From assembly GCA_965224085.1 (NCBI GenBank), contig CBDCYI010000005.1:128001-192000 (forward strand): DNA of 64,000 nt, written 5' to 3'. Shown one piece after another: positions 6,113-62,115 of the stretch. How positions within the stretch are numbered: the stretch's first letter is position 1; each line of letters opens with the position of its first letter. Made by a program: the position numbers and the translations under genes. The DNA comes from Candidatus Marinacidobacterales bacterium (GTDB lineage: Bacteria; Acidobacteriota; Vicinamibacteria; Marinacidobacterales; SMYC01). The notes beneath the pieces were generated by a model. It worked only from the letters and a program-made list of their open reading frames with translations. It did not search any database and was not told where the DNA came from.

Positions 6113-6158
6113 AACCAAGCAGTCTACCGCAAAATCCGACCTGGATGTTATAGGATCG

Positions 6159-6830: not shown

Positions 6831-6910
6831 TCTAGATCATGTCTGGATAACGTCGCTGCTGTCATCATCGATGACAGTATTCCTGTAGACATCAAGACGC
6901 CACCGAATCG

Positions 6911-6994
6911 GGCCATTTCGAGATGATCGATCCTTCCACCTCGACGTGGCCGCTCGTACGCGACGCCGCGCGCGACCTCGTCAAAGATCAATAG
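6911..6994 (+). pseudogene. C-terminal fragment of an alpha/beta hydrolase
   Basis: Reads GHFEMIDPSTSTWPLVRDAARDLVKDQ*, resembling the catalytic-His end of esterase/lipase proteins. Confidence 0.45.
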
Positions 6995-7014
6995 TAAGAA
7001 AAACGTAACGCCTA

Positions 7015-7812: not shown

Positions 7813-7815
7813 TGC

Positions 7816-9534: not shown

Positions 9535-9557
9535 TCCTTCTCCTTGAATTTTCGGGC

Positions 9558-10391: not shown

Positions 10392-10443
10392 TTGGGGCCG
10401 GGGTATCGATCTATGTTAGCGGATCCCGGGCGGGAGCGTAAGT

Positions 10444-32929: not shown

Positions 32930-33166
32930 ATGAGCACTGAGAATGACACACAACAGTTGGAGCGCGCGATCGATGAATTGGTCGACGAGTATCGCCACCA
33001 GTGTCTCTGGTTCCTTCGCTCCGATTTCTATCCGAAGACGGTCGACCAGAAGCTGCGTACACTGAAGTACATCGAGCGGTACGGCGATCGCACGGCTTAT
33101 CGCAAGGCGGCTGAGGTCCGACAATGGCTCTTACAGAGTTCCAACGAGACGTCTGCCGGCTGCTAG
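32930..33166 (+). CDS. Small putative antitoxin partner
   Basis: 78 aa with CLWF...YIERYGD motif; overlaps the downstream NTase gene. Confidence 0.7.
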   Translation: MSTENDTQQLERAIDELVDEYRHQCLWFLRSDFYPKTVDQKLRTLKYIERYGDRTAYRKAAEVRQWLLQSSNETSAGC

Positions 33167-33942
33167 CGCAGAATAGAGTCGCCGCCGGCGAGGCCTATCT
33201 TGCCGGGGGCGCTACGCTCAACGAGCTCATCGCGTCGTCTCGGATTTCGCGGGATGTCGACCTTTTCCACGATACCGAGGAGGCTTTGGCGGCCACCTGG
33301 GAGGCGGACCGGCGCCTGCTCGAGACCAGCAGATTTTCCGTCACCGTGCTTCGGGAACGCCCCGCGTTCGTCGAGGCGAGCGTCGAACAGGGTGACGCGT
33401 CTGTGCTGCTTCAATGGGTGAGGGACAGTGCTTACCGTTTTTTTTCCCTCGTCGAGCACGAGGAGCTAGGACTCGTGCTCCATCCGTTCGACCTTGCGAC
33501 GAACAAAGTCCTTGCGCTGGTGGGTCGACTGGAAGTCCGTGACTGGGTCGATGTGATCGAGTGCGACGCCGCGATACAACCTATGGGCTACCTCATGTGG
33601 GCAGCATGCGGCAAGGATCCCGGCTTCAGCCCGGCGGCGATTCTGGAACACGCCGGACGATCGGCGCGCTACTCTGCAGATGAGGTCCTGGAGCTATCCT
33701 TTGCCGGCGACCCGCCCGATCCTGGCGAGCTATCGAAGAGATGGCATCACTTGCTCGACTCCGCCGCGAAAGTGATCGAGCTTCTTCCCGCAGAGGAGGC
33801 TGGCAAATGCGTTCTCACACGGAAAGGTGCTCTCTACCGCGAAGGCGTCTCAGAGCTACGGGAGGCATTACGTCGCGACGAGATCGTGTTCCATGCGGGA
33901 TGCATTCGCGGTGCCTTTCCGCGTGTCCTCGACGACCGATAA
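33124..33942 (+). CDS. AbiEii/AbiGii-like nucleotidyltransferase
   Basis: YLAGGATL, RISRDVDLF, NKVLALVGR, RDWVD. Confidence 0.8.
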   Translation: MALTEFQRDVCRLLAQNRVAAGEAYLAGGATLNELIASSRISRDVDLFHDTEEALAATWEADRRLLETSRFSVTVLRERPAFVEASVEQGDASVLLQWVRDSAYRFFSLVEHEELGLVLHPFDLATNKVLALVGRLEVRDWVDVIECDAAIQPMGYLMWAACGKDPGFSPAAILEHAGRSARYSADEVLELSFAGDPPDPGELSKRWHHLLDSAAKVIELLPAEEAGKCVLTRKGALYREGVSELREALRRDEIVFHAGCIRGAFPRVLDDR

Positions 33943-39241: not shown

Positions 39242-39568
39242 ATGGTCAGCATAGTCGTCTTCGTCACGATGCTCCTCGCCGTAACGGTCGCTTCGATTCG
39301 CTCGGCGCATTGGAGACGCCGTCTTCCCTTTGTCGGCGCGGCCGCCCTCGCGTTGGGAATAATGGTGTTCGCCTTTTTCGTTTTCGCGCCGAAGGACTAT
39401 CTCGTGCGGTGGCCTTCTCTATCCTCCTGGTTCCATCCTTTTCAGCTCGTCTGGTACTCCGGTCTTCTGTGCCTCTTCGGCGGCGGGATTCTCCTGGGCT
39501 CGGCGGTCAGGCGAGTGTTTCGACCGCATGGCAGCGTGCGTTCTCGCGACACAGAACTGAGAGGCTAG
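39242..39568 (+). CDS. Small hypothetical membrane protein
   Basis: 108 aa, three hydrophobic segments. Confidence 0.5.
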   Translation: MVSIVVFVTMLLAVTVASIRSAHWRRRLPFVGAAALALGIMVFAFFVFAPKDYLVRWPSLSSWFHPFQLVWYSGLLCLFGGGILLGSAVRRVFRPHGSVRSRDTELRG

Positions 39569-40581
39569 GGCCGCAACGAGCTCAGCCCGACGAAAGCGCC
39601 GCCGTTGTCGCGGCACAGAAGCCGCATCAGTGTCGCGAAGCGAACGCCCGTGTTCTCCTGAAAGCCGATGCGCGAGAACATGACGGGAAAGCCGATGGAA
39701 TGGATGCGCACGAGTCGATTGCCGTTGCGGTCTTTCTTGTTGATGCGGTCCACCGTGTCGACGACGGATTCCATCGAATCGCCCGTGAACTCGTCGCCGA
39801 AGACGTAGAGGCTTATTTTCTTGTTCGGGGAAGCGAAGGCGCTTATGGCGCGGGTGATCCCTTCCACGGGGCTCGAGTTGCTGAACGGGGCCCATCCGCG
39901 CAGTCGGTCGAGAATGATGCGGCGCCGGCCCGGAGTATCGGGGATCCATTTTCCGGAATAGTTCCGGAACATGTATTGACCCATATCGTTCATGACCTGG
40001 ATGCCTTTGACCTTGGGATAGACGTTCAGGACTTCTTCCATCTTCTTCACGACGAGCGGCCATGCATAGTTGTGCATGCTTCCAGAGGTGTCGATGATAA
40101 AGATGATGTACTCGCTGTCTACGGGTATGCCGCCAATCGTCGCATCGGTTTTGGGGCGACGATAACTTCGTCCGAGAAGCCTCTGCATCTCGGCGGTGAG
40201 CTCTTGCTGGGCGGCGAGAAGGCGCCCTTCGACGATATTGTTGATCTCCGAGAGCTGCTCGGTGGCGGCATATTCTCCTTGGATTTTGGAGAGGTCAGAA
40301 CGGAGGCGCGCGATGGCTTCGCGCTCGGTCGATACTTGCTCGACTTTCGTTTTCAGATCCCTCTCGAGGACATTGGTCTCGCCGCGGATCTCGTAGAGCT
40401 CTTCTTGAAGCTTGGCTACGAGTCCCTCGAGCTCCGTGCGAATGTCCTCTAGGGCTCGAGGCTCACCAATCTTCGTGAGCACGAGAAGCAGAATGATCGC
40501 GCCAAAGCCACAGCAGATGACGTCGAGGAAGGAAAGACTGAAACCGTCGAAGTTCCGGTTTCTTTTTCTAATGGTCTTCAT
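39565..40581 (-). CDS. Membrane-anchored coiled-coil vWA protein
   Basis: RKRNR...FSLSFLDVICCGFGAIILLLVL anchor; MIDAS IIDTSGSM; ATGA overlap with upstream gene. Confidence 0.88.
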   Translation of the reverse strand: MKTIRKRNRNFDGFSLSFLDVICCGFGAIILLLVLTKIGEPRALEDIRTELEGLVAKLQEELYEIRGETNVLERDLKTKVEQVSTEREAIARLRSDLSKIQGEYAATEQLSEINNIVEGRLLAAQQELTAEMQRLLGRSYRRPKTDATIGGIPVDSEYIIFIIDTSGSMHNYAWPLVVKKMEEVLNVYPKVKGIQVMNDMGQYMFRNYSGKWIPDTPGRRRIILDRLRGWAPFSNSSPVEGITRAISAFASPNKKISLYVFGDEFTGDSMESVVDTVDRINKKDRNGNRLVRIHSIGFPVMFSRIGFQENTGVRFATLMRLLCRDNGGAFVGLSSLRP

Positions 40582-41672
40582 GGCCAGTCTTTCGAAGGAC
40601 TGACGAAGGCCCCGCCCGAGAAGAGAGCGAGCTTCCAAAACGCACTCGCCGCCGCGGGGTCGCCTTCCATGGGAAACAAGATGACGTTGATTGGGGTGGA
40701 GTCGCGGAGCTCTTTGACAGCTTCGTTGAAGAGCTTGATACGGTCCCGTCCCGATATCGTTGCACGCCGAGGTAGTCTCTGACCTTGGGTAGGGAGGCCG
40801 TCTGTCAGCAAATAAATATTGTCGGGCGCGGGCCGGAGCGATCGGATCGAAGCAAAAGCCTGATAAAGGTTCGTGCCCCCTTCGGGAACGATCCCTCGCA
40901 CCCGCACGACGGCTTCGTCGAGCGCTTCTCGGTCGCCGCCATCGAGCCACTGGGCGCCTTTGTCGGGAACCACTGAGCTCGACTTGGTATTGAAGGCATA
41001 AATCTGAAAGCGGCTTTCCGTTGGGATCTGCGTGGTGAGCCAATCCACTGTGGCGACGGTTTGCCGCCACTTTTCCGAGTTCTGCCGGATCTCGACCGTT
41101 TGGTTGCGCCGCCTCAAGACATTGACGACGGTTTCATCGATCATGCTCGCCGAGGCGTCCACGAGGATGAGGATGCGGCGGCCGCCGACTTTCAACCCCG
41201 TGAGATATTGACGGTCACCGTCGCCGACGAAGGTCCGCAAGCGATCCCCGGGGGTTTCCTCGCTTTTCGCCGCGGCGGAGAGTCGCTTGACCTCTTCCTC
41301 GAGCGTCTTGAGGTCCGTCTTTAGCTTGTTGACGTGTTCTTTCTTGGCGAGCGTCGAGTCTTCGTAAGTGGCCAGCTCCTCTTGGATGGTGGTCAGCGTC
41401 TCGAGCAGCCGGCGGGAGAGTCCCGAGGCGACGATGTCCTCCTGATCGATTTCCAGGATCGAGTTTCGAAGCTCCACGAGCTTGACGTAGCCTTCGAGGA
41501 CTTCCTCTTCGAGGCGGTTCACCTCGCCGTGAAGGTCGGCGCTCATACGGCCCGAGACGCGGCCGAAACTCGCATTGACGATCATGTAGAAGAGCACGAC
41601 GGCGCCGAAACCGCAGGTCATCGCGTCCAGAAAAGACAGGCTGAAGACGTTCAAGCGGCGGCGGCGAGCCAT
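40578..41672 (-). CDS. Membrane-anchored coiled-coil vWA protein
   Basis: RRRR...FSLSFLDAMTCGFGAVVLFYMI anchor; LVDASASM, GGTNL, LTDGLP. Confidence 0.88.
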   Translation of the reverse strand: MARRRRLNVFSLSFLDAMTCGFGAVVLFYMIVNASFGRVSGRMSADLHGEVNRLEEEVLEGYVKLVELRNSILEIDQEDIVASGLSRRLLETLTTIQEELATYEDSTLAKKEHVNKLKTDLKTLEEEVKRLSAAAKSEETPGDRLRTFVGDGDRQYLTGLKVGGRRILILVDASASMIDETVVNVLRRRNQTVEIRQNSEKWRQTVATVDWLTTQIPTESRFQIYAFNTKSSSVVPDKGAQWLDGGDREALDEAVVRVRGIVPEGGTNLYQAFASIRSLRPAPDNIYLLTDGLPTQGQRLPRRATISGRDRIKLFNEAVKELRDSTPINVILFPMEGDPAAASAFWKLALFSGGAFVSPSKDWP

Positions 41673-43090
41673 CAGCGAGCCACCTCGATGAGGTGGAGCT
41701 CGATGCCCGGAGCTCCCAGCTTTAGCCGGTCGCCCTTTTTGAGCACGGCCTGTTCGTGGATTCGTTTGTCGTTCAAGAACGTTCCGAACTTGCTGTGATC
41801 CTCCACGACCACTTGTCCGTCCACGCCGTAGATAATGCAGTGATCGCGCGAGATGCCGCTGGTCTCACCCGCGAGATTGATACCTCGCTTCCCGTCCGGA
41901 ATGGAGACGCCGAGAAAAAAGGGTTCGCTCTTGAGTGCGTAGGCCACGCCGTCGTGCAGAATGTGCGTCGGTGGATCACCCGCGCGCGCGTTCTCCGCGA
42001 TCGGCGCGCCGCTCGTAGCGACGCTCGCGTCAGCTTTAGCGCCGAGCGCTAAGGTCGTTAGAAAAGTGAGCGCGTCGTCTTTGGTGGATGGGGTGGATGG
42101 GGTGGATGGGGTGGATGGAGCGAGCCGTTCATAGAGAAGCGCGCCCGACGCGGCCGCGGTGGCCGGAAGCACGATGATGTTCTCAGAGACGTCGCGGGCG
42201 AGTTTTTCGACGAGGCCGGGTAGCGCGGCAAGCCGGTTCGCGATCAAGAGCATCGCGGGCTCGTCTGGAGGCATCGACATTGCCGCAAGCGACGTGATGG
42301 GCTTGTAATAGGGAAGCGCGGCATCGACGATTTGCTGTCTCGGAAGCTCGATGACACGCCCCTTTCCGGCCGATTCCATCTGGAGCGTTGCGACGTCTTC
42401 GTCGTAGAGCGCGTCGAGCCATCCCGGGAGCGCGTCGTAGAGCTTCTGCTCGCTCTCGGCCGAGTGGAGCGGGTCGAAGCGCGTCTGTCGAACGAAGGAT
42501 TGCGCGACGAGTGTGGCCCACGCGTCTTGGAGCGGAACGAGTCCGACATCCTCGTTGACGACGGTGTTCTCGCGGACGAGCTTCTCGTCGCGGAAGATGC
42601 TGGTTGCCGAAACGCGATGGAGGTGCAGATCGAGGTGGACAAGAGCGCGACCCTCGGTTACGCCCGCGGCGGCCGCGAGTGCTGCGTCCATCATGCACCC
42701 GACGGCGATCCCGATCGCTCGCGCCATCCCGAGGATCAAACCCAGCTGGTCCAAGGAGTACCAGCCGGGGACGGCTAGCACGGCACGATCCCTGTCGGAG
42801 CCTTCGGCTTCGTCCCACAGGTGGCTCAGATGCGCATGAGCTAGATCAGCTCGGCTCAGCTGGCTCGGAAATGGCCGCGAAAGGGGAGTCGTATCGAGAG
42901 CGTCCCAAAACCGTGTATGGGTAAAACGTGGCGTGAGGCGTAATCGCGACCGCGCTTTTCTGCCGGTGAAGATGGCATCGCCGTCGACGACGGCAATGCC
43001 CGGGCTCTCGGGCAGCGCCAGCACTTTCGGTGCGCTGTCACGCACGGCAACAATGCCGGCGTCGTTGAGCTCGAGTGCGAGAGCCGCCAT
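41672..43090 (-). CDS. Actin/Hsp70-like fold protein with C-terminal FHA domain
   Basis: LALELNDAG, PESPGIA, LAVPG, DAALAAA, VHLDLHL; FHA ISRDHC...SKFGTFLN. Confidence 0.75.
   Translation of the reverse strand: MAALALELNDAGIVAVRDSAPKVLALPESPGIAVVDGDAIFTGRKARSRLRLTPRFTHTRFWDALDTTPLSRPFPSQLSRADLAHAHLSHLWDEAEGSDRDRAVLAVPGWYSLDQLGLILGMARAIGIAVGCMMDAALAAAAGVTEGRALVHLDLHLHRVSATSIFRDEKLVRENTVVNEDVGLVPLQDAWATLVAQSFVRQTRFDPLHSAESEQKLYDALPGWLDALYDEDVATLQMESAGKGRVIELPRQQIVDAALPYYKPITSLAAMSMPPDEPAMLLIANRLAALPGLVEKLARDVSENIIVLPATAAASGALLYERLAPSTPSTPSTPSTKDDALTFLTTLALGAKADASVATSGAPIAENARAGDPPTHILHDGVAYALKSEPFFLGVSIPDGKRGINLAGETSGISRDHCIIYGVDGQVVVEDHSKFGTFLNDKRIHEQAVLKKGDRLKLGAPGIELHLIEVAR
42083..42118. 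repeat. 9-bp tandem repeat x4 (PST linker)
   Basis: ggtggatgg x4. Confidence 0.95.
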
Positions 43091-43098
43091 CCCGCCCT

Positions 43099-43896
43099 TC
43101 AGGGGACTTGCAGATGCTGGATGAGGTGGTCGTCGAGATACGTCTCGGTATCGAGCACCAGGCGCTCTTGATGCAGCTGTAGCTGATGCAGAAGGAACAT
43201 CAACACGATCGAGATGAGCAGCGCTATGAACGTCGAGTTGAACGCGACGCCAAGACTCTGCGTCACGCCGGCGATATCGCCTTCGACCGCTTTGTGCGCT
43301 TGTCCGAGAGCATCGCCGATCCCGCGCACCGTGCCGATGAACCCGATCGACGGGATAGCCCAGGCGATGTAGCGGACCATCGACAGCTCGGACTCGAGTC
43401 GCTCCGATTCGCTGGCACAGACTCCATGCGCCGTCGTCGACACGTCCTGGATGTTCCCTGTCGCGCGAAATCGGTGAAGCGCCGCGAGCAGCGAGCGCGG
43501 CAGCAAGAAACTTTGCTCGCCGGCCGGAAGCGATTGGATTTGCCGTGCATATTCTCGGGCGTCTTCCGGCAGGATCCGCGTCCCTTCACTGACGGGTACG
43601 AGATCCGTTTCCAAAAGGCGATTTTCTTTCACGGCGATGACGCCTTTATACGCCATGATGGCGATAGCCCAGATCATGAGCACGAAACAAGCTTCTTGCT
43701 CGAAATCACGAATGATGACCCAGACCGAGCGCTCTTGAGCATAGGCAGGGTCGATCTCCATCATGGCGCGCTGCTCGCCAAGAACGATCTCGGCCTTTGG
43801 CCGCACGACGAGCACGTAGACGGCATGCACTACGATGAAGGCGATGATGAGAGACAGCGCCTGATAGACGAACTCGACCGGGTAGGACTTCTTCAT
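43099..43896 (-). CDS. MotA/TolQ/ExbB proton channel family protein
   Basis: AIPSIGFIGTVRGI and GVAFNSTFIAL TM motifs. Confidence 0.9.
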   Translation of the reverse strand: MKKSYPVEFVYQALSLIIAFIVVHAVYVLVVRPKAEIVLGEQRAMMEIDPAYAQERSVWVIIRDFEQEACFVLMIWAIAIMAYKGVIAVKENRLLETDLVPVSEGTRILPEDAREYARQIQSLPAGEQSFLLPRSLLAALHRFRATGNIQDVSTTAHGVCASESERLESELSMVRYIAWAIPSIGFIGTVRGIGDALGQAHKAVEGDIAGVTQSLGVAFNSTFIALLISIVLMFLLHQLQLHQERLVLDTETYLDDHLIQHLQVP

Positions 43897-44088
43897 TTAG
43901 ATGTCCACGGGAAAGGAGACGGAGCTGCCTGCGGGAACTCTCTCCGATGGGATGAAATCTTCGTCCTTGGTTTTTTGGCGTTCTTGCACCGGCGGCGCGC
44001 CCGCCGGCTCGATGGTTGCCACAGCACTTCCCACGAAAGCGCCACTCAAGAAGAGCGCGATACTCAGAGAATAGATAATCCACTTCAT
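43897..44088 (-). CDS. Small secreted protein
   Basis: 63 aa, signal peptide, ends FIPSERVPAGSSVSFPVDI; abuts both neighbours. Confidence 0.7.
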   Translation of the reverse strand: MKWIIYSLSIALFLSGAFVGSAVATIEPAGAPPVQERQKTKDEDFIPSERVPAGSSVSFPVDI

Positions 44089-44092
44089 GGCT

Positions 44093-46531
44093 TTACTCCA
44101 GATATCTCGCGATCCGAAACCCCACATCGGATCGCGCTTTGTTTCCATAATCGCGAAAGCTCAGACGAAGCTGGGTGACGGTTCCGTGTAAGAAGCTCCC
44201 TCCACGGATCACGTGGAACTCACCCTCGGCGGGACCCATCGGGTCCTGCAGAACGTTCCGGCGCCCGGATGCATAGATCGTATACAAGTCGTGAACCCAT
44301 TCCGCAACGTTGCCGCCGAGGTTGTACATGCTGAGAGGGTTGGCGTCGAAGCTTTTCGAGGGAGCGGTCCCGGGGAAGCCGTCGGTATAGCTCGGTACCG
44401 TGGTCAGAACGAGCCCCTTTGCGGTGGCATCCGCAAAGTTCCCCGCGCCCGCTGGAACCGGAAGTGAGTTGCCCCAGGAATATTTGAGCTTCTCGCCCTC
44501 GGGGTATCGAGCAACGAGAGCCCACTCCGCTTCGGTCGGGAGGCGGTAGCCCGTCGTGGGCGCGTTCGCGGGCCCGAGCTTACCGCCCACGTTGACATAG
44601 GCGGGCGGAAGGGATTCCTGCTCGCTCAGCCAATTGCAGTACGCGGCTGCGTCTTGCCACGTCACCTTCACCACCGGGTGGTGATCGATTTCGAGGTTGT
44701 GCCCTTGGACGGCGCCCGATCGGTGGCCGGCGCGAAACTCGCGAAACTCGCGATTCGTGACTTCCGTCGTGGCCACGTAGAACGCGCGCGTGAGCTCCAC
44801 CGTGCGAAGCGCTTCATTGGCACGACGGCCCGGCTCGCGGCGTGATGCTCCCATCTCGAACCGTTTGGGCTTTATGAGGCGAAGCTCTTGACCTTGGGAC
44901 GTCTGGATCACGGGCAAGATCGACGCGGCTTTGATCTCGGCTAGCGTCTTCAATTGGACTTCGATCGTCTGCGGGAAACCTGGCCGCGGTGTGACCTCGG
45001 TGGCGAAGCCCTCATAGAGATCTTTCTTGATCTCGATTCGATGCGGCGCTGCGGGGAGCTTCAAGGTCTGGTGCGCCGGGCCGTGCGCTTCACCATTCAC
45101 GAAGAGATTGGCGTCAGGCGGGTCCACGACGAGCTCGATCTCGCCGATCAGGGGCTCGAGCGTGACGGTGATGGTCTGGCTCCGCGAAGAACTTACCGAT
45201 ATTTCACGGTTGACGGACTCGTAGCCCGCGCGTGACAGCTCCAGCTGATGGTCCTTGTTGGGCGGGAGATCTAGCTCCAGAGGTGTTTGCCCGGCATATT
45301 CGCCATCGACGGTGACGTTCACAGCGCCCGGGACGCTGAGCACAACGAGATTGCCGTCGACGAGCTCGAGCGGCACCGGGCCGACCGTCTTCGCCGTTTT
45401 CGAAACGACGTGCACCCGGCCTCGATAAGGTTTATGGCCGTTGAGAATGACGTCGTAGTTGTGCGTGCCCTCGAGTAGATTGGCGTCGACGGGTGTCGGA
45501 CCGTAGGTTGTGCCGGCGACACGGATCATCGCACCTTTTGGCTCCGAGGTGAACGTGACGGAGCCCCAAGCGGGCTCGAGCGTGGCTTCGAGCTCGACGA
45601 TGGTGCCTTTTCCCTCCATCGTGACCGTCTCGACGAAGTCATGGTGCAGATCGGCTCGAATGACAACCGTGTACTCACCCCGCTCGAGCTCGAGCGGCTC
45701 GAGGGGCGTGACGCCGACTTCTTCGCCGTCGATCAAAACGACAGCTCCTTCCTCTGGTGACGTCGTCAGAACGAGCTGCCCCGACAATTGCTTCAAGAAA
45801 AAGGAGACTTCCTGATTTCGATCGGAACCGACGGTGAACGTCGTCTCTAAATGACGATAGCCTTCTTTCTCGGCAATCATCGTATACGCGCCGGGATGGG
45901 CGAAAAAGCGGTCGCCTATTTGGAGAGCGAAGGGCGGCCCTTCCACACGGTAGGTGTCGGGAGCCGGGTCGAACTCGAAGGCGACCGAACGCGCGCCAAA
46001 AAGCGCCCAGGCCACCGAGCCGAGAAGAAGGACGAGTACCCAGAAGACGATCGCCCCCGCCCGCACGCGAGGCCGTCGTCGACGCGCTTCGGCGATCGGC
46101 GTCGGCGTGAACGCGACCGGGCTAATGGTCTCTCCCGAGCTCTTCGGTGCGGTCGCGGTGGTGTCAGTGGTATTCGTGGGGCCGACGATGATGGGAGGAT
46201 CGGTCTTTTTGTCCTCGATGTTGTTGAGACAAAACTTGAAGTCGCCACCTTGCGCTTCGATCTCGATGCGGGCCCCGCCGATGGCGATGACATCGCGGTC
46301 GCGGAGCCATTGCGACGTCTTCACGGGAGTGCCGTTGACCCTGACGTTTCCGGATGCGGCTTGCACGAAGACCTCGTCGCTCGATAAACCGAGATGAGCG
46401 AGCGGCTCTTCAGTTTGAGGGCCAAAAACGGGGATATCGGCGTCGGGCCCGCCAACGGATAACGGGAAAGCGCTCGCCTCGACGCGACGCCGCGTGCCGT
46501 TCGCCTCACGTATAACGAAGCGCCAGCTCAA
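44093..46531 (-). CDS. FHA-like / TM / PEGA repeats / SUMF1 (FGE-sulfatase) domain protein
   Basis: N-terminal FHA-like region; PEGA repeats (GVTPL, GPTPV, GQTPL); FEMG, EVTN, RLPTEAEW, GNVAEW, RGGS, GFR. Confidence 0.88.
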   Translation of the reverse strand: MSWRFVIREANGTRRRVEASAFPLSVGGPDADIPVFGPQTEEPLAHLGLSSDEVFVQAASGNVRVNGTPVKTSQWLRDRDVIAIGGARIEIEAQGGDFKFCLNNIEDKKTDPPIIVGPTNTTDTTATAPKSSGETISPVAFTPTPIAEARRRRPRVRAGAIVFWVLVLLLGSVAWALFGARSVAFEFDPAPDTYRVEGPPFALQIGDRFFAHPGAYTMIAEKEGYRHLETTFTVGSDRNQEVSFFLKQLSGQLVLTTSPEEGAVVLIDGEEVGVTPLEPLELERGEYTVVIRADLHHDFVETVTMEGKGTIVELEATLEPAWGSVTFTSEPKGAMIRVAGTTYGPTPVDANLLEGTHNYDVILNGHKPYRGRVHVVSKTAKTVGPVPLELVDGNLVVLSVPGAVNVTVDGEYAGQTPLELDLPPNKDHQLELSRAGYESVNREISVSSSRSQTITVTLEPLIGEIELVVDPPDANLFVNGEAHGPAHQTLKLPAAPHRIEIKKDLYEGFATEVTPRPGFPQTIEVQLKTLAEIKAASILPVIQTSQGQELRLIKPKRFEMGASRREPGRRANEALRTVELTRAFYVATTEVTNREFREFRAGHRSGAVQGHNLEIDHHPVVKVTWQDAAAYCNWLSEQESLPPAYVNVGGKLGPANAPTTGYRLPTEAEWALVARYPEGEKLKYSWGNSLPVPAGAGNFADATAKGLVLTTVPSYTDGFPGTAPSKSFDANPLSMYNLGGNVAEWVHDLYTIYASGRRNVLQDPMGPAEGEFHVIRGGSFLHGTVTQLRLSFRDYGNKARSDVGFRIARYLE

Positions 46532-48780
46532 ATCTCCTCCTCGCAGCGCACGAGTAGAGGCTCGGGTGGTGCCGTGGCTTCGACGACGAGCCGGAGCCTT
46601 ACGTCGCGGTAGCCCAGGCGTGTTCCGACCACCGTGTAGGTTCCGGGCCGCAAGATGAGGGAGTGACGGTCGAACTTTCCGAGCGTTCCGACTTTGTAGA
46701 CGACGACCTCGGTCTTTTTGTCGGAGAGCAGATAGACTTGTACGGGCGTCGAATATTCGCGCACGAGCGCATCGAGCCGCTCGATCTGGCCTGCGAGCCG
46801 GGGACCTTTGTCCGCGATTTCCATCGCCCGCTGAAGCGACGCGGAGGCTTCATCGAGCACTTTGGCCTCCGAGAGCCGTGCCGGGTTTTTTATGTGGAAC
46901 GAGAGCTCGGACGAGAGCTCGGCTCGGTCCTCGGCGCGTGCCTTGCCCGCCTGTGCGAAGCGGATGGTCGCATCCACGTCCAACACGGCTTGATAATGTT
47001 GGGCCGCGGAGCGCCACGCTTCGTGGGTCTCGAAGCCGCGTGCTTTCTCGCGATTCTCGGCGATCTTGGCGAGCCGTTCACCTTGTGCGACCGCCAGAAG
47101 CCCGCTCGTGACGTCTGGCGCGTCCGGTTTGATGGCGCGGGCGCGCTCGAAGGCCTCCCGCGAACGCGGGAAGTCTCGTGCGTTCAAGGCCGCCACCGCC
47201 TCGGACATCGCGGCGGTGAACACCTGCTCCGAAGAGTGCTGGTCGATGCGGGCCAAGCCTTGCTGGGCGGCCGTCGTGAGCGGGTCGAGCGACACGGCTT
47301 TGCGGTAGCGCTCGGCGGCGCCGTCCGAATCACCTCTAGCCTCGAGTTCCTCCGCGCGCGTTATGAGCGTGCGAACTTCGTCGAGGACGCGGCTGCGCTC
47401 GAGTCCCTTGCGGGCGGCGCTTCCGCCCGGTTGGACCTGGAGGGCGAGCGCGAACGCCTCGGCGGCTTCAGTGCTTCTTCCTGCCGCGAGCGCCTCGCGT
47501 CCACGGGCGAGCGCTTCTTTGGCGACTCCGCTAGCAAGACCTCGCACGGTGTTCCAGTGCGTGAGCGCCTCTTCATAGCTCGTCTCGGCGCGCGCGAACT
47601 CGCGGCGCCGCATTTGCTCGCCACCGGCCGTCATGGCCTCGACGCCGAGGCGATAATCTGCGCCACCCCAAATCTGCGCTTGTCTCGCCTCGAGCGAATC
47701 GCGTGCGCTCGTAGCGCGTTGTTGTGCTTGCTCCGCCAGCGCCTTGCCTTCGGCGAGGGTTTCTAGGTCGGTGGTCTCGACCGCTGGCACGGCTCGTGCG
47801 GCCGGCTCCGATTCTGTTAAGGGCGGGGCGGTGTCGACGGCAAAGCGCGGGAGCACGAAGAACACGACACCCGCAAGTGCTACGAGCACCGCGAAGGCGG
47901 TGAGCGTCTTGAAGCCCATCCCGCCGCCGGAATCTTCACGTCGCTTCACGCGAGCCGCTGGTGTAGGCGGTTTCGCCGCATCGAACGCGATCGCCTCGAT
48001 CTTCTTCGCCACAAGCGGAGGCGGCGTCAGTTTGACCGCGGGCGTTTCGGTGATCTCTCGCCGAATCTCTTCGAGGCTCGCCTGGATCGACCGCATGTCG
48101 GTTGGGCGGTGGCGCGGATCCCAGTTGGTCGTGGTACTCAAAAGTGCTTCGAGCTTGGAAGGGAGCTTTTCGCCGCTCGTCAAGTCGCGCACGAGCATGC
48201 CGAAGGCGTAGATATCGTCGGTGGGTGATGGCGTTTCGCCGGCGAGCTGCTGCGGGCTCGCTGTTCCTTCCGAGCCGCCGCCTCTGATCTCGAGCACGCC
48301 CGGTTTCCGATCGATAACGCCAGCAATCCCGAAATCGAGAAGCTTCGGTTCGCTCGAAGGGTCGATCAAGATGTTCGAGGCTTTGAGATCGCGGTGCACG
48401 ATCCCCTGAGCGTGCGCATAGGCGAGCGCATCGGCGACGGAGATGAGCGGCGCGAGAACCTCCTTCAGTGGACGCCCGCGCAAACAGCCGATGTTCCCGC
48501 CTTCGACATAAGCCATCGTGATGAAACTGGTACCGGAGCCGCGATGAAAATCGTAGACCGGCACGATGTTTTTGTGGACGAGCTTGCGTGCGTGGCGGCA
48601 CTCGCGTCGCAAAAGCGTGAGCGCATCTTCGGAGGCGCCTTTGGGGATGACTTTCGCCACCACGCGATCCTCGAGCTCACGATCGTCTGCTAGCCACACT
48701 TCGCCCATACCTCCTTTGCCGAGTGGACGGATGAGTTGAAAGCGCTCCCCGAGCAACTGACCGCGAGCCAGACTCGTCAT
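46528..48780 (-). CDS. Hanks-type Ser/Thr kinase with TM and TPR-like extracytoplasmic region
   Basis: LGKGGMGEV, VAKV, HRDLKASN, DFG; TM; helical repeats. Confidence 0.9.
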   Translation of the reverse strand: MTSLARGQLLGERFQLIRPLGKGGMGEVWLADDRELEDRVVAKVIPKGASEDALTLLRRECRHARKLVHKNIVPVYDFHRGSGTSFITMAYVEGGNIGCLRGRPLKEVLAPLISVADALAYAHAQGIVHRDLKASNILIDPSSEPKLLDFGIAGVIDRKPGVLEIRGGGSEGTASPQQLAGETPSPTDDIYAFGMLVRDLTSGEKLPSKLEALLSTTTNWDPRHRPTDMRSIQASLEEIRREITETPAVKLTPPPLVAKKIEAIAFDAAKPPTPAARVKRREDSGGGMGFKTLTAFAVLVALAGVVFFVLPRFAVDTAPPLTESEPAARAVPAVETTDLETLAEGKALAEQAQQRATSARDSLEARQAQIWGGADYRLGVEAMTAGGEQMRRREFARAETSYEEALTHWNTVRGLASGVAKEALARGREALAAGRSTEAAEAFALALQVQPGGSAARKGLERSRVLDEVRTLITRAEELEARGDSDGAAERYRKAVSLDPLTTAAQQGLARIDQHSSEQVFTAAMSEAVAALNARDFPRSREAFERARAIKPDAPDVTSGLLAVAQGERLAKIAENREKARGFETHEAWRSAAQHYQAVLDVDATIRFAQAGKARAEDRAELSSELSFHIKNPARLSEAKVLDEASASLQRAMEIADKGPRLAGQIERLDALVREYSTPVQVYLLSDKKTEVVVYKVGTLGKFDRHSLILRPGTYTVVGTRLGYRDVRLRLVVEATAPPEPLLVRCEEEI

Positions 48781-48799
48781 GGCACGGCCATTCGGACGC

Positions 48800-50041
48800 T
48801 TAGTTCTTGGATGGACCCCCAGACGCCGGAATGGGTGCGGCGTTCGGGTCCAAAGGCAGCCCCGTCTCGGCTGCAAACATTTGACGGAGAATCTCGCGCC
48901 ACGTGTCGTATTGGGTAGAAACGGAACCTGTGAGTCGCAGCACTTCGCCTTCGACGTCAATCAAGATGGGGGCGACTTCCGAGTCGAAGGACGCTGCGAG
49001 CTCGCGAAGCGCCTCCCGATGCATTTTCGCCTCTTCGGACTTTTGGAATCCATCGTTCAGGACCGCCATCCCGCCCAAGATCCCGACTTGTCCGACGCCC
49101 TGACCTGCACGTCCGCCGCGGGTTGCGGCGATAACGCCACCGATGATGGCGGCCCCGCCGAGGATTTTTTCCAAGCGGCCTTGTTTGGTGAGCTTCTCAT
49201 AGGCGAGCCGCTCTTCATAAGCGTAGCTGCGCCAGCTGTCATAAGCGGGATCGATTTGTGCGTGGAAGTCGGCGTAATACTCGTTCAACGTGTCGACGAA
49301 CATGAAGTCGCGCTCGCGGATATCGGCGAGGTGCGACATCATCGGATCCTCATAGGACGGGAGCTTTTCGATCTTGTACTTATTCTTCTTGACTTCGAGA
49401 TAGTGGCCAAAGGCGATGGGCGCGAGGTAGTTTGCGAAACGCAGCTCAGCTACCCGGCGCACTTCCTGTACGTCTTCTTCATCGAGCTTTTGGGCCACTT
49501 TCAGAAGATCGTTCGCGATTTCGTTGTAGAGGCTTTGAAACGGCTCGCGGTCGGTCTCGGTATCTTTGTAGACGATAGGATTGGCCTCGCCTTTGTACCT
49601 ACGGTCGAACCACTTTTTTCCGCGCGCGTCTACGACGATGAGATCGATTTCGAGGTCCTTCCCGTTGGACTTGTGGATAGTCCCACCGATCCGCAGATCG
49701 ACGACATGCGATGCGGGAACGATGCGCACGGCGCCCCAATAGCCGGACATCTCGAGCGTCTGTTTGAGGCGCATCGGAAAATAGCGCGCTTCCGACTTGC
49801 GGACGTCGGCATAGACACCTTTTTCTTCGAGCATGTAGCGCTCGTACTCGTCGTTGGGGAGACCCGGGTCGAAGAGCTGGATGCCGACATCGAGGAGCGA
49901 TTCTTCCGGCACTTCGGACTGCGCCAAGACGAGCTCGACGGGTTTGTCGTCGAGCGCCCACGACGGTGTCGCAAGCGCTAGGCCGAGGATGCCTAGGAGA
50001 AGGGTCGCTCCTGATCCGCGAGTCGGCGCTTTTCTAGTCAT
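48800..50041 (-). CDS. Secreted hypothetical protein with a C-terminal glycine-zipper-like segment
   Basis: Signal ending SWA; ILGGAAIIGGVIAA...GVGQVGILGG. Confidence 0.8.
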   Translation of the reverse strand: MTRKAPTRGSGATLLLGILGLALATPSWALDDKPVELVLAQSEVPEESLLDVGIQLFDPGLPNDEYERYMLEEKGVYADVRKSEARYFPMRLKQTLEMSGYWGAVRIVPASHVVDLRIGGTIHKSNGKDLEIDLIVVDARGKKWFDRRYKGEANPIVYKDTETDREPFQSLYNEIANDLLKVAQKLDEEDVQEVRRVAELRFANYLAPIAFGHYLEVKKNKYKIEKLPSYEDPMMSHLADIRERDFMFVDTLNEYYADFHAQIDPAYDSWRSYAYEERLAYEKLTKQGRLEKILGGAAIIGGVIAATRGGRAGQGVGQVGILGGMAVLNDGFQKSEEAKMHREALRELAASFDSEVAPILIDVEGEVLRLTGSVSTQYDTWREILRQMFAAETGLPLDPNAAPIPASGGPSKN

Positions 50042-50059
50042 GTCTGTCTCCCCACGCAA

Positions 50060-50872
50060 CTACTTCTTCGTCGCGCTCTTGTAAGCACGATACTCCTCCC
50101 AGAGCTTCTCTCGAAGCACGGGGTCGCTCTCACTCATTGCAGCTTCACGAAGCTGTTTGGCGACGATGTCGTCGTCGCGTCCGTCGCCTACGTCTTCGGG
50201 AACGGGTGGCGCTTGTGTATCGTCCCCGGCGGGCGCGCTCTCGACGCGGGCGCCGCTCTCATTCGTCGGCGGCTCTTCGGGCGCATCGGGCGATCCGCCC
50301 GTGCCACCCGCCATTTGTGCCGAGCGACGCGACTCCAACTCGTCTTCACTCGTACCTTCGCCAGCGTCTTCCCCGCCGCCACCACCGCCCGCGGCGGCTG
50401 CGGCTTCGCGCCGGCCTTCGAGGAGCTCTTGCTCCTTCAAGATCAAACCGTCGAACTCGCGCAAGGATTTGTCGAGCTCGCCGTCCAAACCGGCGCGCTG
50501 TTCATCCGACGTCCGCGCTCCTGGCGGTGAGCCGCCTGCCGTGACCGCCGTTGTACTCGCCGCCTCGCCTGCTTCTTCGCCGGCTGGGCCTTCTTCGCCG
50601 GCTTCGCTGTCACTCTCGTTGCTTTCGGAAGCGGCGCTGGCCTCCGTCGTGGGGGTACTCTCGCTGCCGCTGACCGGTGTCGGAGTGGGAGCTTCGGATG
50701 TTACAGAAGGCTCTGAAGGAGGTTTGGGCGGCTCGGGAACCGATGGCATCGAGGACTGACTTGCGGAACAACCGATCAAGGCGATCGAGGCAACCAAGAG
50801 TGGTATCAGCTTCCACGGCGCCAAGTTTCTTGCCAAGCGTTCCAGCATGGTCATCCGATGGGCGTTAGACAT
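50060..50872 (-). CDS. Low-complexity acidic lipoprotein
   Basis: Lipobox LIGC; ends DDDIVAKQLREAA...LWEEYRAYK; start is an estimate. Confidence 0.75.
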   Translation of the reverse strand: MSNAHRMTMLERLARNLAPWKLIPLLVASIALIGCSASQSSMPSVPEPPKPPSEPSVTSEAPTPTPVSGSESTPTTEASAASESNESDSEAGEEGPAGEEAGEAASTTAVTAGGSPPGARTSDEQRAGLDGELDKSLREFDGLILKEQELLEGRREAAAAAGGGGGGEDAGEGTSEDELESRRSAQMAGGTGGSPDAPEEPPTNESGARVESAPAGDDTQAPPVPEDVGDGRDDDIVAKQLREAAMSESDPVLREKLWEEYRAYKSATKK

Positions 50873-50903
50873 TGGGTCCAGTACCTCCACATGGTAACCC
50901 ATC

Positions 50904-50919
50904 TGCAAAGTCAGGGCCA
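50904..50919 (-). promoter_or_regulatory. Sigma54 (-24/-12) promoter of the 39565-50872 operon
   Basis: Minus strand TGGCCC-TGACT-TTGCA, just upstream of a GGAGG RBS. Confidence 0.65.
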
Positions 50920-51089: not shown

Positions 51090-52541
51090 ATGATTGAATG
51101 GGTCGCCTCGCATCTCGTTCTCGCAGGCACGGCGTTGGTGGCGGTGTTTGCCGGGGTAGCGGTCGTCCACGCGCTTTTGTTCAAGGATGAAGTCCGCGCG
51201 GCGATCGGGTGGGTGGGTCTCATTCTCCTCGTGCCGCTCTTTGGCTCGGTTCTCTACTACTTGATTGGTATCAATCGCATCCGGCGGAGGGCGGTGGCGC
51301 TTCGCCGGCAAAACAAAGAAAACGCACAAGGCCCGCTCCCCGCGGCCGGCCTCATCCCGGGGGATGTCGCGGCGATCTTGGGGGCTACCGACCAAGCGGT
51401 GGAGCTTGCTCATCTTGTCGGCAACGTGACCTCGCGGCCGCTGCTCGGCGGAAATCTTGTCCAGCCGCTCGTGAATGGCGACGAGGCCTACCCTGCCATG
51501 CTCGAGGCCATTCGGAGCGCCGAGCAGAGCATCGTGCTTCTCACTTATATCTTCGACAACGACTCGGCGGGCCGACAGTTTCTCGACGCGCTCACGGATG
51601 CGACCCATCGCGGGGTTGAAGTCCGTGTCCTCATCGACTCGGTCGGCTCGCGCTACTCGCATCCTCCGATCTCACGGCTTCTGAAACGAAACGGTGTACC
51701 GGTCGCGTCGTTTCTACCTACGTTTTCGACGCGGTTACCGTCGTTCAACTTGCGCAACCACCGCAAGGTCATGGTCGTCGATGGTCGCATCGGTTTCACC
51801 GGTGGGATGAATATTCGTGAGGACTTCGTTCTCGATCCGAAGCCGAAACATCCCGGGATGGACTTGCACTTTCGCGTCGAGGGGCCGGTCGTGCAGCATC
51901 TTCACGAGACCTTTGCCGAGGATTGGGAGTTCACGACGGGGGAGTCACTCGACAGCGCGCGCTGGTTCAAAAAGCTCTTGCCCATCGGCCAAACGATCGC
52001 ACGCGGCATCGTCGACGGCCCCGACGCGGATCTGAACGTTTTGAACTTTACGCTCATGGGCGCCATCGCTTGCGCTACGCGCTCCATCAAGATTGTCACG
52101 CCCTATTTTTTGCCGGACCAAGCGCTCGTCTACGCCCTCAACACGGCCTCGTTGGGCGGTCTCGATGTCGATATCGTTCTGCCCGAGAAGGGCAACTTGA
52201 GACTAGTGAACTGGGCGATGGGGGGGCAGATCGATCAGGTTCTCGAACATGGGTGCCGCATTTGGCTTTCACCGAAGCAGCCTTTCGATCACACCAAGCT
52301 CATGGTAGTGGACGACTATTGGGTCTTGTTCGGGTCGATCAATTGGGACCCGAGAAGCTTGCGCTTGAACTTCGAGTTCAACGTCGAATGCTACGACCGG
52401 GAGCTCGCCGAGCAGATGGGGGACCTCGTGCGGGAGCGGATTGCGAAAGCGCGTCGGCTGACGGCCGAGCAGCATGGGCAGAGAAAACTTCCGGTGCGCC
52501 TTCGAGACGGAGCGGCACGTCTGCTGACACCTTATTTGTAG
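51090..52541 (+). CDS. cls: Cardiolipin synthase
   Basis: N-terminal TM pair; two HKD motifs (HRKVMVVD, HTKLMVVD). Confidence 0.92.
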   Translation: MIEWVASHLVLAGTALVAVFAGVAVVHALLFKDEVRAAIGWVGLILLVPLFGSVLYYLIGINRIRRRAVALRRQNKENAQGPLPAAGLIPGDVAAILGATDQAVELAHLVGNVTSRPLLGGNLVQPLVNGDEAYPAMLEAIRSAEQSIVLLTYIFDNDSAGRQFLDALTDATHRGVEVRVLIDSVGSRYSHPPISRLLKRNGVPVASFLPTFSTRLPSFNLRNHRKVMVVDGRIGFTGGMNIREDFVLDPKPKHPGMDLHFRVEGPVVQHLHETFAEDWEFTTGESLDSARWFKKLLPIGQTIARGIVDGPDADLNVLNFTLMGAIACATRSIKIVTPYFLPDQALVYALNTASLGGLDVDIVLPEKGNLRLVNWAMGGQIDQVLEHGCRIWLSPKQPFDHTKLMVVDDYWVLFGSINWDPRSLRLNFEFNVECYDRELAEQMGDLVRERIAKARRLTAEQHGQRKLPVRLRDGAARLLTPYL

Positions 52542-60303: not shown

Positions 60304-62115
60304 GTGACACGTCATCCGGAATGGCTGGTGCCCGGCGCTCTCTTAGTGATGACGGCTTGCGGAGGGGAAACGCCGTCCCTTCACGAGCCGGTTCGCCTGG
60401 CGGATCGAGTCTTCGACCAGGCGGCCCTCACTCCCGTGACCTTCCAGGATGAGACGCGCTTCAGCGTCGCCCCCAACGTTCCGTCCCAAATGCGTTTCGA
60501 GATCCGGGTCCCCATGCGAGGCGTTCTCGAGTTCGGTACGGGGGCTCGGGTTGCCGACGGAGCGGTGCTTCCCGCCCGCGTCGAGTTCCGGGTCGAGCTG
60601 CGTTCCGGAGACGAGCGAGAGATGGTTTTTTCACACACCATTAGGCGCTTCGAGCCCAACGCGTGGTTCGACCACGAAATCGATCTGACGCGGTGGGAAG
60701 GCTCCGTCGTCGATTTGAGCTTCGAAGTGTCGGCACTGGCACCGCGCGGGGACCGTGACGGCACACCCGCGAGTGTGGATGGGCTCACGCCCCTGTGGGC
60801 CAATCCCGTGATCTTCAGTCGCGAGGCCCCACGCGATCGCCCCGACGTGATCCTCGTCTCCATCGATTGCTTGCGCGTCGACCACGTGAGCACCTACGGC
60901 TATGCACGCGAGACCACGCCCTGGATCGATCGCTTCGCGAAGGACGGCGTGGTGTTCGAGACGGCAGTGGCTTCGGCTCCGGAGACGTTGCCTTCGCATA
61001 TGTCCATTTTAACTGGGTTGACACCTCCGCTCCATGGCGCGAGCAAGCGTTCGAGGCTTCCCGCGAGCGTTCCCTATCTTCCCGAGCTTCTCGCATCGAA
61101 CGGATACGAGGTGGACGCCATCGTCACGGGAGCGTTCTTGTCCCAGGCGTTCGGTTTCGAGCGAGGTTTCCACTCCTATCGATTCTTGGACGTGCCCCGC
61201 TCGGAGGCGGCGGTCGACGCAGCGCTACGCCTATTGCATCGCGGTCGCGGACGGAGCCAGTTCTTGTGGTTGCATCTGTTCGAGGCTCATTGGCCCTATC
61301 TTCCTGAGCGCGATCTGATCGAAAAGTTTGGCCCGCGGCCGCGCGACATCACGGCGCTCATGAGCAAAGTTTCGAATCAGGATCTCGCGCCGGACGGACC
61401 GGATGAGATCCAGGCGGTCGTGAACCTCTACGATGCCGAGGTCTTCGCTACCGACCGAGCGGTGGGCCGCTTTCTTGAGAATCTGAAGTCGCGGGGTCTC
61501 TACGAATCCTCGCTTATCATCGTCGTGGCAGACCATGGCGAGGCCTTCTATGAGCACGGATTGTGGCAGCACACGCTGGCGCTCTACGAAGAGATGATTC
61601 GGATACCGCTCGTCGTCAAGTGGCCGGGAGACTCTCCCATCGGGAGAAGCGACGTCCGCGTCCATCAAGTCGACTTGTTCAGCACGATGCTCGACATCGC
61701 GGGCATCAGCCCCCCGCCGAACGAAGGCCGGAACCTGAGGAGCTTTGTGGACGCCTCGAAAACCGAGCCCCGAGTGCTGTGGAGCGAGGCCGGATGGGCC
61801 TCCGCGGGACGTTTCTTCCGCATCCTCTCGTCCCGGGACGACAAGTTTAAGTATATCGTCAGCATGGAGGACGACGAGGAGCGCGGTTGGCCCCCAACGC
61901 GGCTGAGCCGCGAGGAAGTTTATCGGTGGGTCGCGGACCCTGGCGAACGCGAAGAGCTGTCGGAGGGAAACGGTGCCCAGCCCGATGTTTTCCGAGGCCA
62001 CCTGCGAGCGTACTTGAAAGAAACCGCAGCACGCCGCGCACAGACTCCCAAGATGACCATCGAGCTCGACGAGACGACGCTCGAGCAGCTCAGGGCTTTG
62101 GGTTACCTCAAGTAG
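60304..62115 (+). CDS. Sulfatase-like lipoprotein
   Basis: Lipobox MTAC; SIDCLRVDH, TLPSHMSILTG, EAHWPY, ADHGE; ends QLRALGYLK. Confidence 0.9.
   Translation: MTRHPEWLVPGALLVMTACGGETPSLHEPVRLADRVFDQAALTPVTFQDETRFSVAPNVPSQMRFEIRVPMRGVLEFGTGARVADGAVLPARVEFRVELRSGDEREMVFSHTIRRFEPNAWFDHEIDLTRWEGSVVDLSFEVSALAPRGDRDGTPASVDGLTPLWANPVIFSREAPRDRPDVILVSIDCLRVDHVSTYGYARETTPWIDRFAKDGVVFETAVASAPETLPSHMSILTGLTPPLHGASKRSRLPASVPYLPELLASNGYEVDAIVTGAFLSQAFGFERGFHSYRFLDVPRSEAAVDAALRLLHRGRGRSQFLWLHLFEAHWPYLPERDLIEKFGPRPRDITALMSKVSNQDLAPDGPDEIQAVVNLYDAEVFATDRAVGRFLENLKSRGLYESSLIIVVADHGEAFYEHGLWQHTLALYEEMIRIPLVVKWPGDSPIGRSDVRVHQVDLFSTMLDIAGISPPPNEGRNLRSFVDASKTEPRVLWSEAGWASAGRFFRILSSRDDKFKYIVSMEDDEERGWPPTRLSREEVYRWVADPGEREELSEGNGAQPDVFRGHLRAYLKETAARRAQTPKMTIELDETTLEQLRALGYLK

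Follow-up and report, generated by a model that had tools for sequence, protein, structure and literature searches.

Nine minus-strand genes, g1 to g9, which fill positions 39565-50872 of a 64,000-nucleotide stretch of DNA from a Candidatus Marinacidobacterales bacterium (GenBank assembly GCA_965224085.1, contig CBDCYI010000005.1, positions 128,001 to 192,000; the window from here on), form one conserved operon. We propose, with a confidence somewhat above even, that this operon encodes one envelope-spanning machine organized around a proton-driven motor of the TolQR/ExbBD/MotAB kind, with a kinase switch as an optional part. Ion-driven 5:2 motors stand behind flagella, the uptake of nutrients, the upkeep of the outer membrane, gliding and one phage defence, and each new set of partners revealed for such a motor has shown another way in which energy from the inner membrane can reach the surface of the cell. 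In the proposed machine, the usual inner subunit would be replaced by two integrin-like heads. The gene set is among the best conserved of many marine and sediment bacteria, and what we contribute is a parts list that goes past a published three-gene core, together with evolutionary evidence for a detachable layer made of a kinase and an FHA reader.

The evidence that the nine genes belong together is their recurrence. We collected related loci from two scans of species-representative genomes, one with g6 as the query (80 loci) and one with an alignment of g9 (79 loci; some contigs are in both), and we scored synteny by tblastn of all nine proteins on both strands and by a tally based on open reading frames. 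The genes are co-linear in 158/159 loci. All eight larger genes are found in 88 loci, 87 of which are co-linear; the exception is locus L143:446-11005 in a Myxococcales metagenome-assembled genome, where g1-g4 lie on one strand and g5-g9 on the opposite one. Because the same order and strand recur in the related loci, as far as their contigs extend, the arrangement is not due to chance. According to the record titles, the hosts are Acidobacteriota, Gammaproteobacteria (including Halieaceae), Desulfobacterota, Myxococcota, Gemmatimonadota, Kiritimatiellia and Planctomycetota. Nearly all of them are metagenome-assembled genomes from marine or sediment samples, and one is cultured, the non-pathogenic Congregibacter variabilis IMCC43200 (L162), whose operon, within NZ_CP136864.1:3321548-3342528, is of a form without the kinase that is open to deletion and imaging. 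Within the window, the gaps between consecutive genes from g1 to g9 measure 18, 19, -4, 4, 0, 8, -1 and -4 nucleotides. In Table 1, we report the genes, the putative promoter element and a second copy of the operon in the same genome.

Table 1. Features of the operon. Positions are those of the window unless another locus is named; gene coordinates come from the list of open reading frames and the most plausible start codons.
Feature	Position	Strand	Description
g1	50060..50872	-	lipoprotein, first gene of the operon, also in related loci; start is the most plausible codon
g2	48800..50041	-	secreted protein, PelC/LptE/TolB-N-like domain (predicted) and long helical hairpin with Gly-zipper tip
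g3	46528..48780	-	cytoplasmic Hanks-type Ser/Thr kinase, one transmembrane helix, periplasmic TPR and conserved C-terminal beta domain
g4	44093..46531	-	degenerate FHA-like domain (cytoplasm), transmembrane helix, four PEGA and cysteine-less FGE-sulfatase fold (periplasm)
g5	43897..44088	-	63-residue secreted peptide: signal peptide, acidic linker, invariant C-terminus
g6	43099..43896	-	TolQ/MotA/ExbB-type channel subunit, 265 residues
g7	41672..43090	-	cytoplasmic Hsp70-like nucleotide-binding domain and canonical C-terminal FHA
g8	40578..41672	-	putative trans-pore helix with D16, coiled coil of about 100 residues, vWA head
g9	39565..40581	-	g8 paralogue: putative trans-pore helix with D20, coiled coil, divergent vWA head
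sigma54-type -24/-12 element	50904..50919	-	TGGCCC-N5-TTGCA, read from sequence
second copy	L093 (G000:C11:670500-686500), about 3900-12975		g6' 75% identical to g6

The -24/-12 element sits 33 nucleotides 5' of the g1 ATG (50872), with a GGAGG noted there. A strict sigma54 motif is found 5' of g1 in 16/48 related loci, compared with 0.9% of random windows from the same loci, and the host genome has rpoN. Sigma70-like and terminator-like sites within the operon show no excess over shuffled sequences.

The conservation of the operon also bears on whether it could serve in conflict or against phages as a Zorya-type system, with the MotA-like channel sensing a perturbation of the envelope and triggering a response. 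Zorya does employ a 5:2 unit of the MotAB kind, the kinase has matches among models of defence kinases (PD-T4-6 with E 6.7e-44, and mad6), and the phyletic distribution is patchy. The operon is however present in 17/18 genomes of the window's family, the tree of g6, g8 and g9 tracks the phyla (113 rows; nine changes of phylum label where the minimum is six), and the sequence conservation is very high compared with that of typical defence islands. Among the PADLOC models, ZorA matches only at E 0.0042 and ZorB-G do not match, the other matches being generic kinase and coiled-coil ones, and neither a nuclease nor another effector domain is found in the nine proteins with Pfam and NCBIfam. We regard a defence role as very improbable.

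Returning to the proposed motor, its core consists of g6, g8 and g9, the best-conserved proteins of the operon. Domains here and below are called with Pfam and NCBIfam at E <= 0.01. The channel subunit g6 matches PF01618 (MotA_ExbB) with E 1.2e-13, above the family cut-off, and its nearest solved relatives are TolQ (E 0.03) and MotA (E 0.057). Its residues T189 and T222 align with both pore threonines of TolQ. Identity of g6 across phyla is 59-97%; it has at least 8000 relatives at E <= 0.001, of which the best 120 are 77-100% identical to it. No match to the ExbD/TolR, MotB/OmpA or TonB families is found in any of the nine proteins. Instead of such a partner, g8 and g9 each start with a helix that resembles the trans-pore helix of TolR and ExbD, followed by the coiled coil and the vWA (von Willebrand factor A) head. 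The helix Asp is kept in 67/67 orthologues of g8 (D16) and in 62/63 of g9 (D20), and the DxSxS motif of the metal-ion-dependent adhesion site (MIDAS) in 67/67 and 63/63 (D172-x-S174-x-S176 in g8, D164-x-S166-x-S168 in g9). The head of g8 matches VWA_3 (E 1.8e-6), and a profile search of g8 against solved structures returns coiled-coil matches only. For g9, no vWA family passes the threshold (VWA_2 has E 0.016) and the other matches are weak coiled-coil ones, but 30/30 of its orthologues match VWA_2 at E <= 1, and a profile-profile comparison of g8 with g9 gives 99.3% probability and E 3.9e-20. By these comparisons g8 and g9 are paralogues. Among 1.84 billion cluster representatives, 338 are related to g9 at E <= 1e-30. 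Judged from the sequences, the vWA proteins are what supplies the Asp-bearing helix in place of the canonical ExbD/TolR/MotB partner; a proton drive and a 5:2 stoichiometry are predicted.

An earlier note on this DNA had described most of this layout, and much of it stands: the nine co-oriented genes with overlaps or gaps under 20 bp (we measure -4 to 19), the sigma54-type promoter, for which the motif in relatives and rpoN now speak as well, the channel without an ExbD, TolR, MotB or TonB gene and with two vWA partners, now known to carry the conserved helix Asp, and the lipoprotein and secreted Gly-zipper protein at the head of the operon. The synteny check that the note had called for finds the nine-gene order in about seven phyla. 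Its vWA label for g9 fits a paralogue of g8 whose orthologues match VWA_2, while g9 itself stays below the Pfam threshold.

The second part of the proposal is the switch. The kinase g3 matches Pkinase (E 2e-28) and TPR, and its catalytic Lys, HRD Asp, catalytic-loop Asn and DFG Asp are all there (K103, D191, N196 and D209, numbered in the 810-residue open reading frame); the best-conserved part of g3 is its periplasmic C-terminus. The likely reader is g7, with a C-terminal FHA domain (E 3.6e-11) in which the phosphothreonine-binding residues S414, R415, H417 and N440 are intact. The first 330 residues of g7 have the fold of an Hsp70 nucleotide-binding domain (AlphaFold 2 model, predicted local distance difference test, pLDDT, 88.7): Foldseek matches Ssz1 with E 3e-18 and the nucleotide-binding domain of DnaK with TMt 0.74, and a sequence profile also reaches Ssz1 (E 2.5e-4). 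The model thus puts this region in the actin/Hsp70 superfamily and not with actin proper. Compared by eye, g7 has ELNDAG and DLHLHRVS where we take the Hsp70 phosphate motifs to stand, and both look degenerate. A PSTPST linker in g7, considered as a phospho-site, is not conserved among its orthologues.

To score co-variation, we compared the state of the kinase residues (KDND) with that of the g7 FHA residues (S-R-x-H...N) in 89 non-redundant operons. Of these, 32 operons keep both sets intact and 52 have both sets lost or missing; one has the kinase alone and four have the FHA alone. The tree requires no fewer than 14 changes of the kinase state and 12 of the FHA state. Nine phylogenetically independent pairs can be placed on supported branches, and in them the FHA follows the kinase about 7.1 times and opposes it about 0.1 times (sign test, median p 0.016). 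These figures are identical with the FastTree and IQ-TREE trees. The long cytoplasmic N-terminus of g4 is present in 26/31 kinase-positive and 25/54 kinase-less operons. An intact kinase is thus found in only 33/89 operons. The second operon copy, on contig C11 of the same genome, consists of g1', g2', g3', g4', g5', g6', g8' and g9', without g7; its g3' has 457 residues and no kinase domain. Its g6' and g8' are adjacent, as are g6 and g8 in eight other loci where g7 is missing from its place between them. The g2' gene lies in two reading frames (4883-5368 and 5415-6116 of L093), which may come from a frameshift, from decay of the gene or from an error in the assembly. These patterns suggest that the path from the kinase through a phosphothreonine to the g7 FHA is a control layer that can be detached from a core machine, and that the core comprises g1, g2, the periplasmic part of g3, g4, g5, g6, g8 and g9.

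The co-variation of kinase and FHA would also be expected of an envelope-damage sensor, in which g1 and g4 report outer-membrane damage to g3, g7 reads the mark, the channel and the vWA proteins serve for sensing or anchoring, and the output is encoded elsewhere. A sensor of this kind, TagQ/TagR/PpkA/Fha1, has the same domain vocabulary of lipoprotein, FGE-sulfatase fold, membrane Ser/Thr kinase and FHA reader (PMC13713981). What speaks against the sensor is that 56/89 operons without an intact kinase keep all the other parts, as does the paralogue in this genome, so phospho-signalling cannot be the core function. There are also no type VI secretion system (T6SS) genes near the operon, and conservation that is highest in g6, g8 and g9 is more in keeping with a working machine than with a sensor. 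We find the sensor unlikely. For the motor with an optional switch, the earlier note's description as phosphorylation-controlled has to be narrowed: co-variation backs the link between kinase and FHA, and the counts above show that control is not a defining feature. In the same way, its label of g7 as actin-like with FHA holds for the FHA, and its N-terminal part is amended to the Hsp70 fold of the same superfamily.

The periplasmic side of the inner membrane would be occupied by g4, in which we find four PEGA stretches (E 2.7e-45) and an FGE-sulfatase domain (E 1.8e-41). Its first 100 residues match FHA structures at the profile level only (from E 7.5e-4), and in their consensus GG-P and P-x-A replace GR and S-x-x-H, so that the phosphothreonine-binding residues are missing; the earlier label of FHA, transmembrane helix, PEGA and SUMF1 is therefore accurate for the PEGA and FGE parts and holds for the FHA only as a degenerate domain. 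The FGE domain has a single invariant Cys, C632 in a YCNW motif. There is no Cys in the stretch RGGSFLHGTVTQ, which we take to be the position of the catalytic cysteine pair, and the pair is lacking. Just before the membrane helix, at residues ~135-150, g4 has a juxtamembrane motif, I-x-P-[VI]-x-F. The motif is kept in short forms of g4 that have no FHA-like domain, and it may therefore be a docking site for the motor.

The FGE domain is one link to a transport or motility apparatus comparable to the core of the type IX secretion system (T9SS) and gliding machinery or to Agl-Glt, in which the motor would drive a surface adhesin or the export of cargo encoded elsewhere. The domain matches the GldK/PorK model TIGR03525 (E 1.8e-29) and solved PorK (E 1e-12), the long dimeric periplasmic stalk and the outer-membrane-proximal ring former that we predict resemble PorLMKN, and Agl-Glt has the FHA-transmembrane protein GltG, modelled on AglR5QS, and a vWA adhesin, CglB (PMC11761067). 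Yet the TIGR03525 match scores 103 bits against a curated cut-off of 350, and true FGEs outscore PorK among solved structures (E 3e-19). We tried PorK/GldK as the identity of g4 and rejected it on these grounds. Among the genes flanking the operon, none for a translocon, an outer-membrane barrel, an adhesin or a cargo is conserved, and the vWA heads are predicted to be tethered to the inner membrane. We think this alternative quite unlikely.

For the outer-membrane end of the proposed machine, the candidates are g1 and g2, neither of which has a Pfam or NCBIfam match; the same is true of g5. In g1 we read a lipobox, LIGC, followed by a long disordered region of low complexity, acidic and rich in Gly, and a C-terminal helix whose motif DDDIVA.QLREAA...LWEEYR.YK is strongly conserved (50 orthologues). 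The lipobox is scored in 19/73 orthologues of g1, a count that is unreliable, the N-termini of g1 being poorly set. The protein g2 has a signal peptide, and its AlphaFold 2 model (pLDDT 79) joins an alpha/beta domain at the N-terminus to a very long hairpin of helices, the tip of which is rich in Gly. Foldseek matches the N-terminal domain to the LPHT ring, DUF330, TolB, PelC, FlgT, LptE, CsgG and PqiC. An independent structure search gives Z scores of 9.6 for the LPHT ring chain of the Vibrio flagellum, 9.4 for DUF330, 9.0 for PelC, 8.8 for the TolB N-domain and 8.4 for CsgG, with PqiC and LptE lower. A lipobox is present in 48/95 orthologues of g2. The modelled domain suggests that g2 has the fold of ring-forming outer-membrane lipoproteins, its relatives being mostly such proteins and located close to the outer membrane. 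At the sequence level, the only match of a g2 profile to solved structures has E 0.017, and an atlas search leads to clusters automatically named DUF2884, none of them commonly with a Pfam family, which we note only as a lead.

The secreted peptide g5 escapes tblastn. In an alignment of 21 orthologues, its motif is F-x-P-[ST]-E...[SA]-F-P-x-D-I with invariant F45, P47, E49, F59, P60, D62 and I63, and the acidic linker varies in length. An open reading frame of the g5 type that ends in [FY]-P-x-D-[IVL] is found just 5' of g6 in 123/128 non-redundant loci, with the full motif in 111/128, and the loci that fail the motif are mostly variants. By this tally, g5 is a near-universal member of the operon.

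From the gene set, domains, folds, invariant residues, synteny and co-variation we infer the following scheme, of which the stoichiometry, the proton drive, the contacts between the proteins, the phospho-site and the cellular role are the predicted parts. The g6 subunits would form a ring that serves as the housing of the rotor. The axle would be g8 and g9, probably as a heterodimer, inserting their Asp helices into the g6 pore where TolR or ExbD would otherwise be, and each would carry its stalk of about 100 residues and its metal-dependent vWA head across the periplasm. Beside the motor, g4 and the periplasmic part of g3 would be scaffolds anchored in the inner membrane, and the modelled docking of GltG on AglR5QS (PMC11761067) suggests how g4 might sit by g6. 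The lipoprotein g1 together with g2 would form the outer-membrane end, and g5 is a candidate ligand or plug that could bind the MIDAS site of a vWA head or the groove of the FGE domain. The flow of protons would rotate or pull the axle, and the heads would in this way perform mechanical work on g1 and g2, a principle as in Tol-Pal; the machine would act beside Tol-Pal and not replace it. Where the switch exists, here and in roughly a third of the operons, g3 would make a phosphothreonine mark that the g7 FHA reads, which would gate the assembly or the activity of the motor.

A more specific version of this scheme is possible and, in our estimate, doubtful. The vWA heads might turn inside a g2 ring close to the outer membrane, like the flagellar rod in its bushing, and capture and release an acidic ligand, either the invariant C-terminus of g5 or the acidic tail of g1, with the kinase, the FHA reader and the nucleotide-dead Hsp70 fold acting as a removable cytoplasmic clutch. 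If true, this would add to the 5:2 motors of flagellar rotation, of Ton/Tol force transduction and of T9SS/gliding a fourth class by function.

Several observations weigh against the machine as we propose it. For the motor core, the distance from g6 to TolQ and MotA is large by the E values given above, and an assembly of g6, g8 and g9 would rest on the logic of the sequences and on an in-silico model that another group made of relatives. At the outer-membrane end, the fold match of g2 is middling, the Z scores of 8.4-9.6 comparing with 7-8 for unrelated best matches. The operon encodes no outer-membrane barrel, peptidoglycan-binding domain, substrate or effector, so that the output of the machine is a guess. 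The switch has its own difficulties: five operons are mixed (four with the FHA and no intact kinase, one the reverse), operons with and without the kinase show no difference in how much Thr the g4 linker contains, which points to no phospho-site there, and neither a sigma54 activator nor a phosphatase is found near the operon. By eye, and with the motif as we presume it to be, the usual Arg of the GR pair seems to be absent from the g7 FHA. Finally, g9 is found in 5/301 sampled Acidobacteriota (this genome, G000, included), a patchy distribution that fits an accessory and not a core function.

The surroundings of the operon are unrelated to it, and flanking genes are not conserved across the related loci. 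Upstream and divergent from g1 lies a phospholipase D/cardiolipin-synthase-like gene (window 51090-52541, plus strand), conserved there in eight close acidobacterial relatives only, and the other neighbour is a convergent MscS gene. Two small lipoprotein-like open reading frames lie beside the operon in 13/80 loci (for example L046:14279-15635); they are downstream of it where they share its strand and upstream where they do not, and none is detected beside the copy in the window. We looked for a conserved tenth gene among these and rejected it, the flanks being variable and both candidates limited to the few loci just given. At a distance of 9 kb from the operon there is a sulfatase-family gene (window 60304-62115, plus strand), and g4, whose FGE fold is without the catalytic cysteines, is for this reason unlikely to be its maturase. 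An open reading frame at window 33124-33942 (plus strand) weakly matches AbiEii, a family of nucleotidyltransferase toxins (E 3.3e-5). As for expression, the RNA-labelled runs found are of small share only. Contigs from three marine-sediment libraries (one recorded as RNA, two guessed to be) touch 29-30/30 bins of the operon at 80% likeness; these contigs are fragments of relatives, carry-over of DNA is possible and the comparison has no silent control, so they give a weak hint that related operons are transcribed.

Among known systems, the closest is the TPH-vWA class described in 2025 (PMC12204202, Mol Biol Evol 2025;42:msaf138). That paper predicts a core in which a tolQ-like gene without tolR or exbD lies beside the genes of a heterologous pair of vWA proteins anchored by transmembrane helices; the helices bear a proton-binding Asp, rotation inside the pentamer is proposed, and an AlphaFold 3 model of the 5:2 type, with pore threonines around the Asp, is given. 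Its main hosts are Proteobacteria and Verrucomicrobia, with an Idiomarina query family. The operon shares with this class, as far as a likeness by description goes, the TolQ-like gene, the lack of tolR and exbD, the Asp-bearing vWA pair and the pore threonines. It differs in its other genes: the accessible part of the paper does not mention a kinase or PEGA and has FHA only as FhaC, and g1-g5, g7, the phospho-switch and the g5 peptide are undescribed there. In the window, g7 moreover separates g6 from g8. The earlier note had presented the whole as an undescribed machine, which is not so for the channel and the paired vWA core, already predicted in that paper. A literature search, with the supplements of PMC12204202 outside it, found no paper on the full gene set, the control layer or the function. 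What is new beyond the published core is the remaining six genes, the kinase-FHA co-variation, the second copy without a kinase, g5, the predicted fold of g2 and the identity of g7.

The other comparisons bear out the earlier note in holding the system distinct from Tol, Ton, Agl and Zorya. Zorya likewise has a MotAB-like channel unit outside flagella; here the long tail of ZorA, the peptidoglycan-binding domain of ZorB and the ZorC/D/E effectors are all missing, in keeping with the isolated ZorA match (E 0.004). Agl-Glt of Myxococcus has a TolQR-like motor, a partner with FHA, transmembrane and periplasmic parts (GltG, modelled as docked on the AglR5QS motor) and a vWA protein, the adhesin CglB, as the working head (PMC11761067). 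There the vWA adhesin is at the cell surface and the axle is TolR-like, whereas here the vWA proteins would be the axle, and there are no Glt barrels. In the H1-T6SS of Pseudomonas aeruginosa, damage to the membrane is signalled by TagQ (a lipoprotein), TagR (with the FGE fold), PpkA (a kinase) and Fha1 (an FHA protein) (PMC13713981), and the TagQ/TagR/TagST-PpkA-Fha1 set resembles the operon in that genes for an outer-membrane lipoprotein, a periplasmic protein of the FGE fold, a Hanks-type kinase in the membrane and a reader with an FHA domain occur together. The operon differs from it in having no T6SS, TagST-like ABC unit or PppA-type phosphatase, in the fusion of the FHA to an Hsp70-like domain, and in that the module is optional and would sit on a motor. 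With PorL/M-PorK/N (GldKLMN) of T9SS and gliding, the operon would share a motor of the 5:2 type, a dimeric subunit spanning the periplasm and an FGE-fold protein near the outer membrane; the differences are that g6 belongs to PF01618 and not to GldL, that the FGE protein is anchored to the inner membrane through PEGA and falls below the GldK cut-off, and that a T9SS translocon is absent. Finally, Tol-Pal has in common with the operon a TolQ-type channel, an axle helix with an Asp, a protein spanning the periplasm, an outer-membrane lipoprotein and a single operon. The operon does without TolA, TolB, Pal and the periplasmic domain of TolR, and its axle would bear a stalk and a head. The genome has four PF01618 matches in all, among them a separate TolQ on contig C11 that adjoins a TolB passing its curated cut-off, and one further ExbB-type gene; there is no flagellar stator. 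With its own TolQ-TolB and ExbB-type genes in the genome, the system described here would work beside Tol-Pal and Ton.

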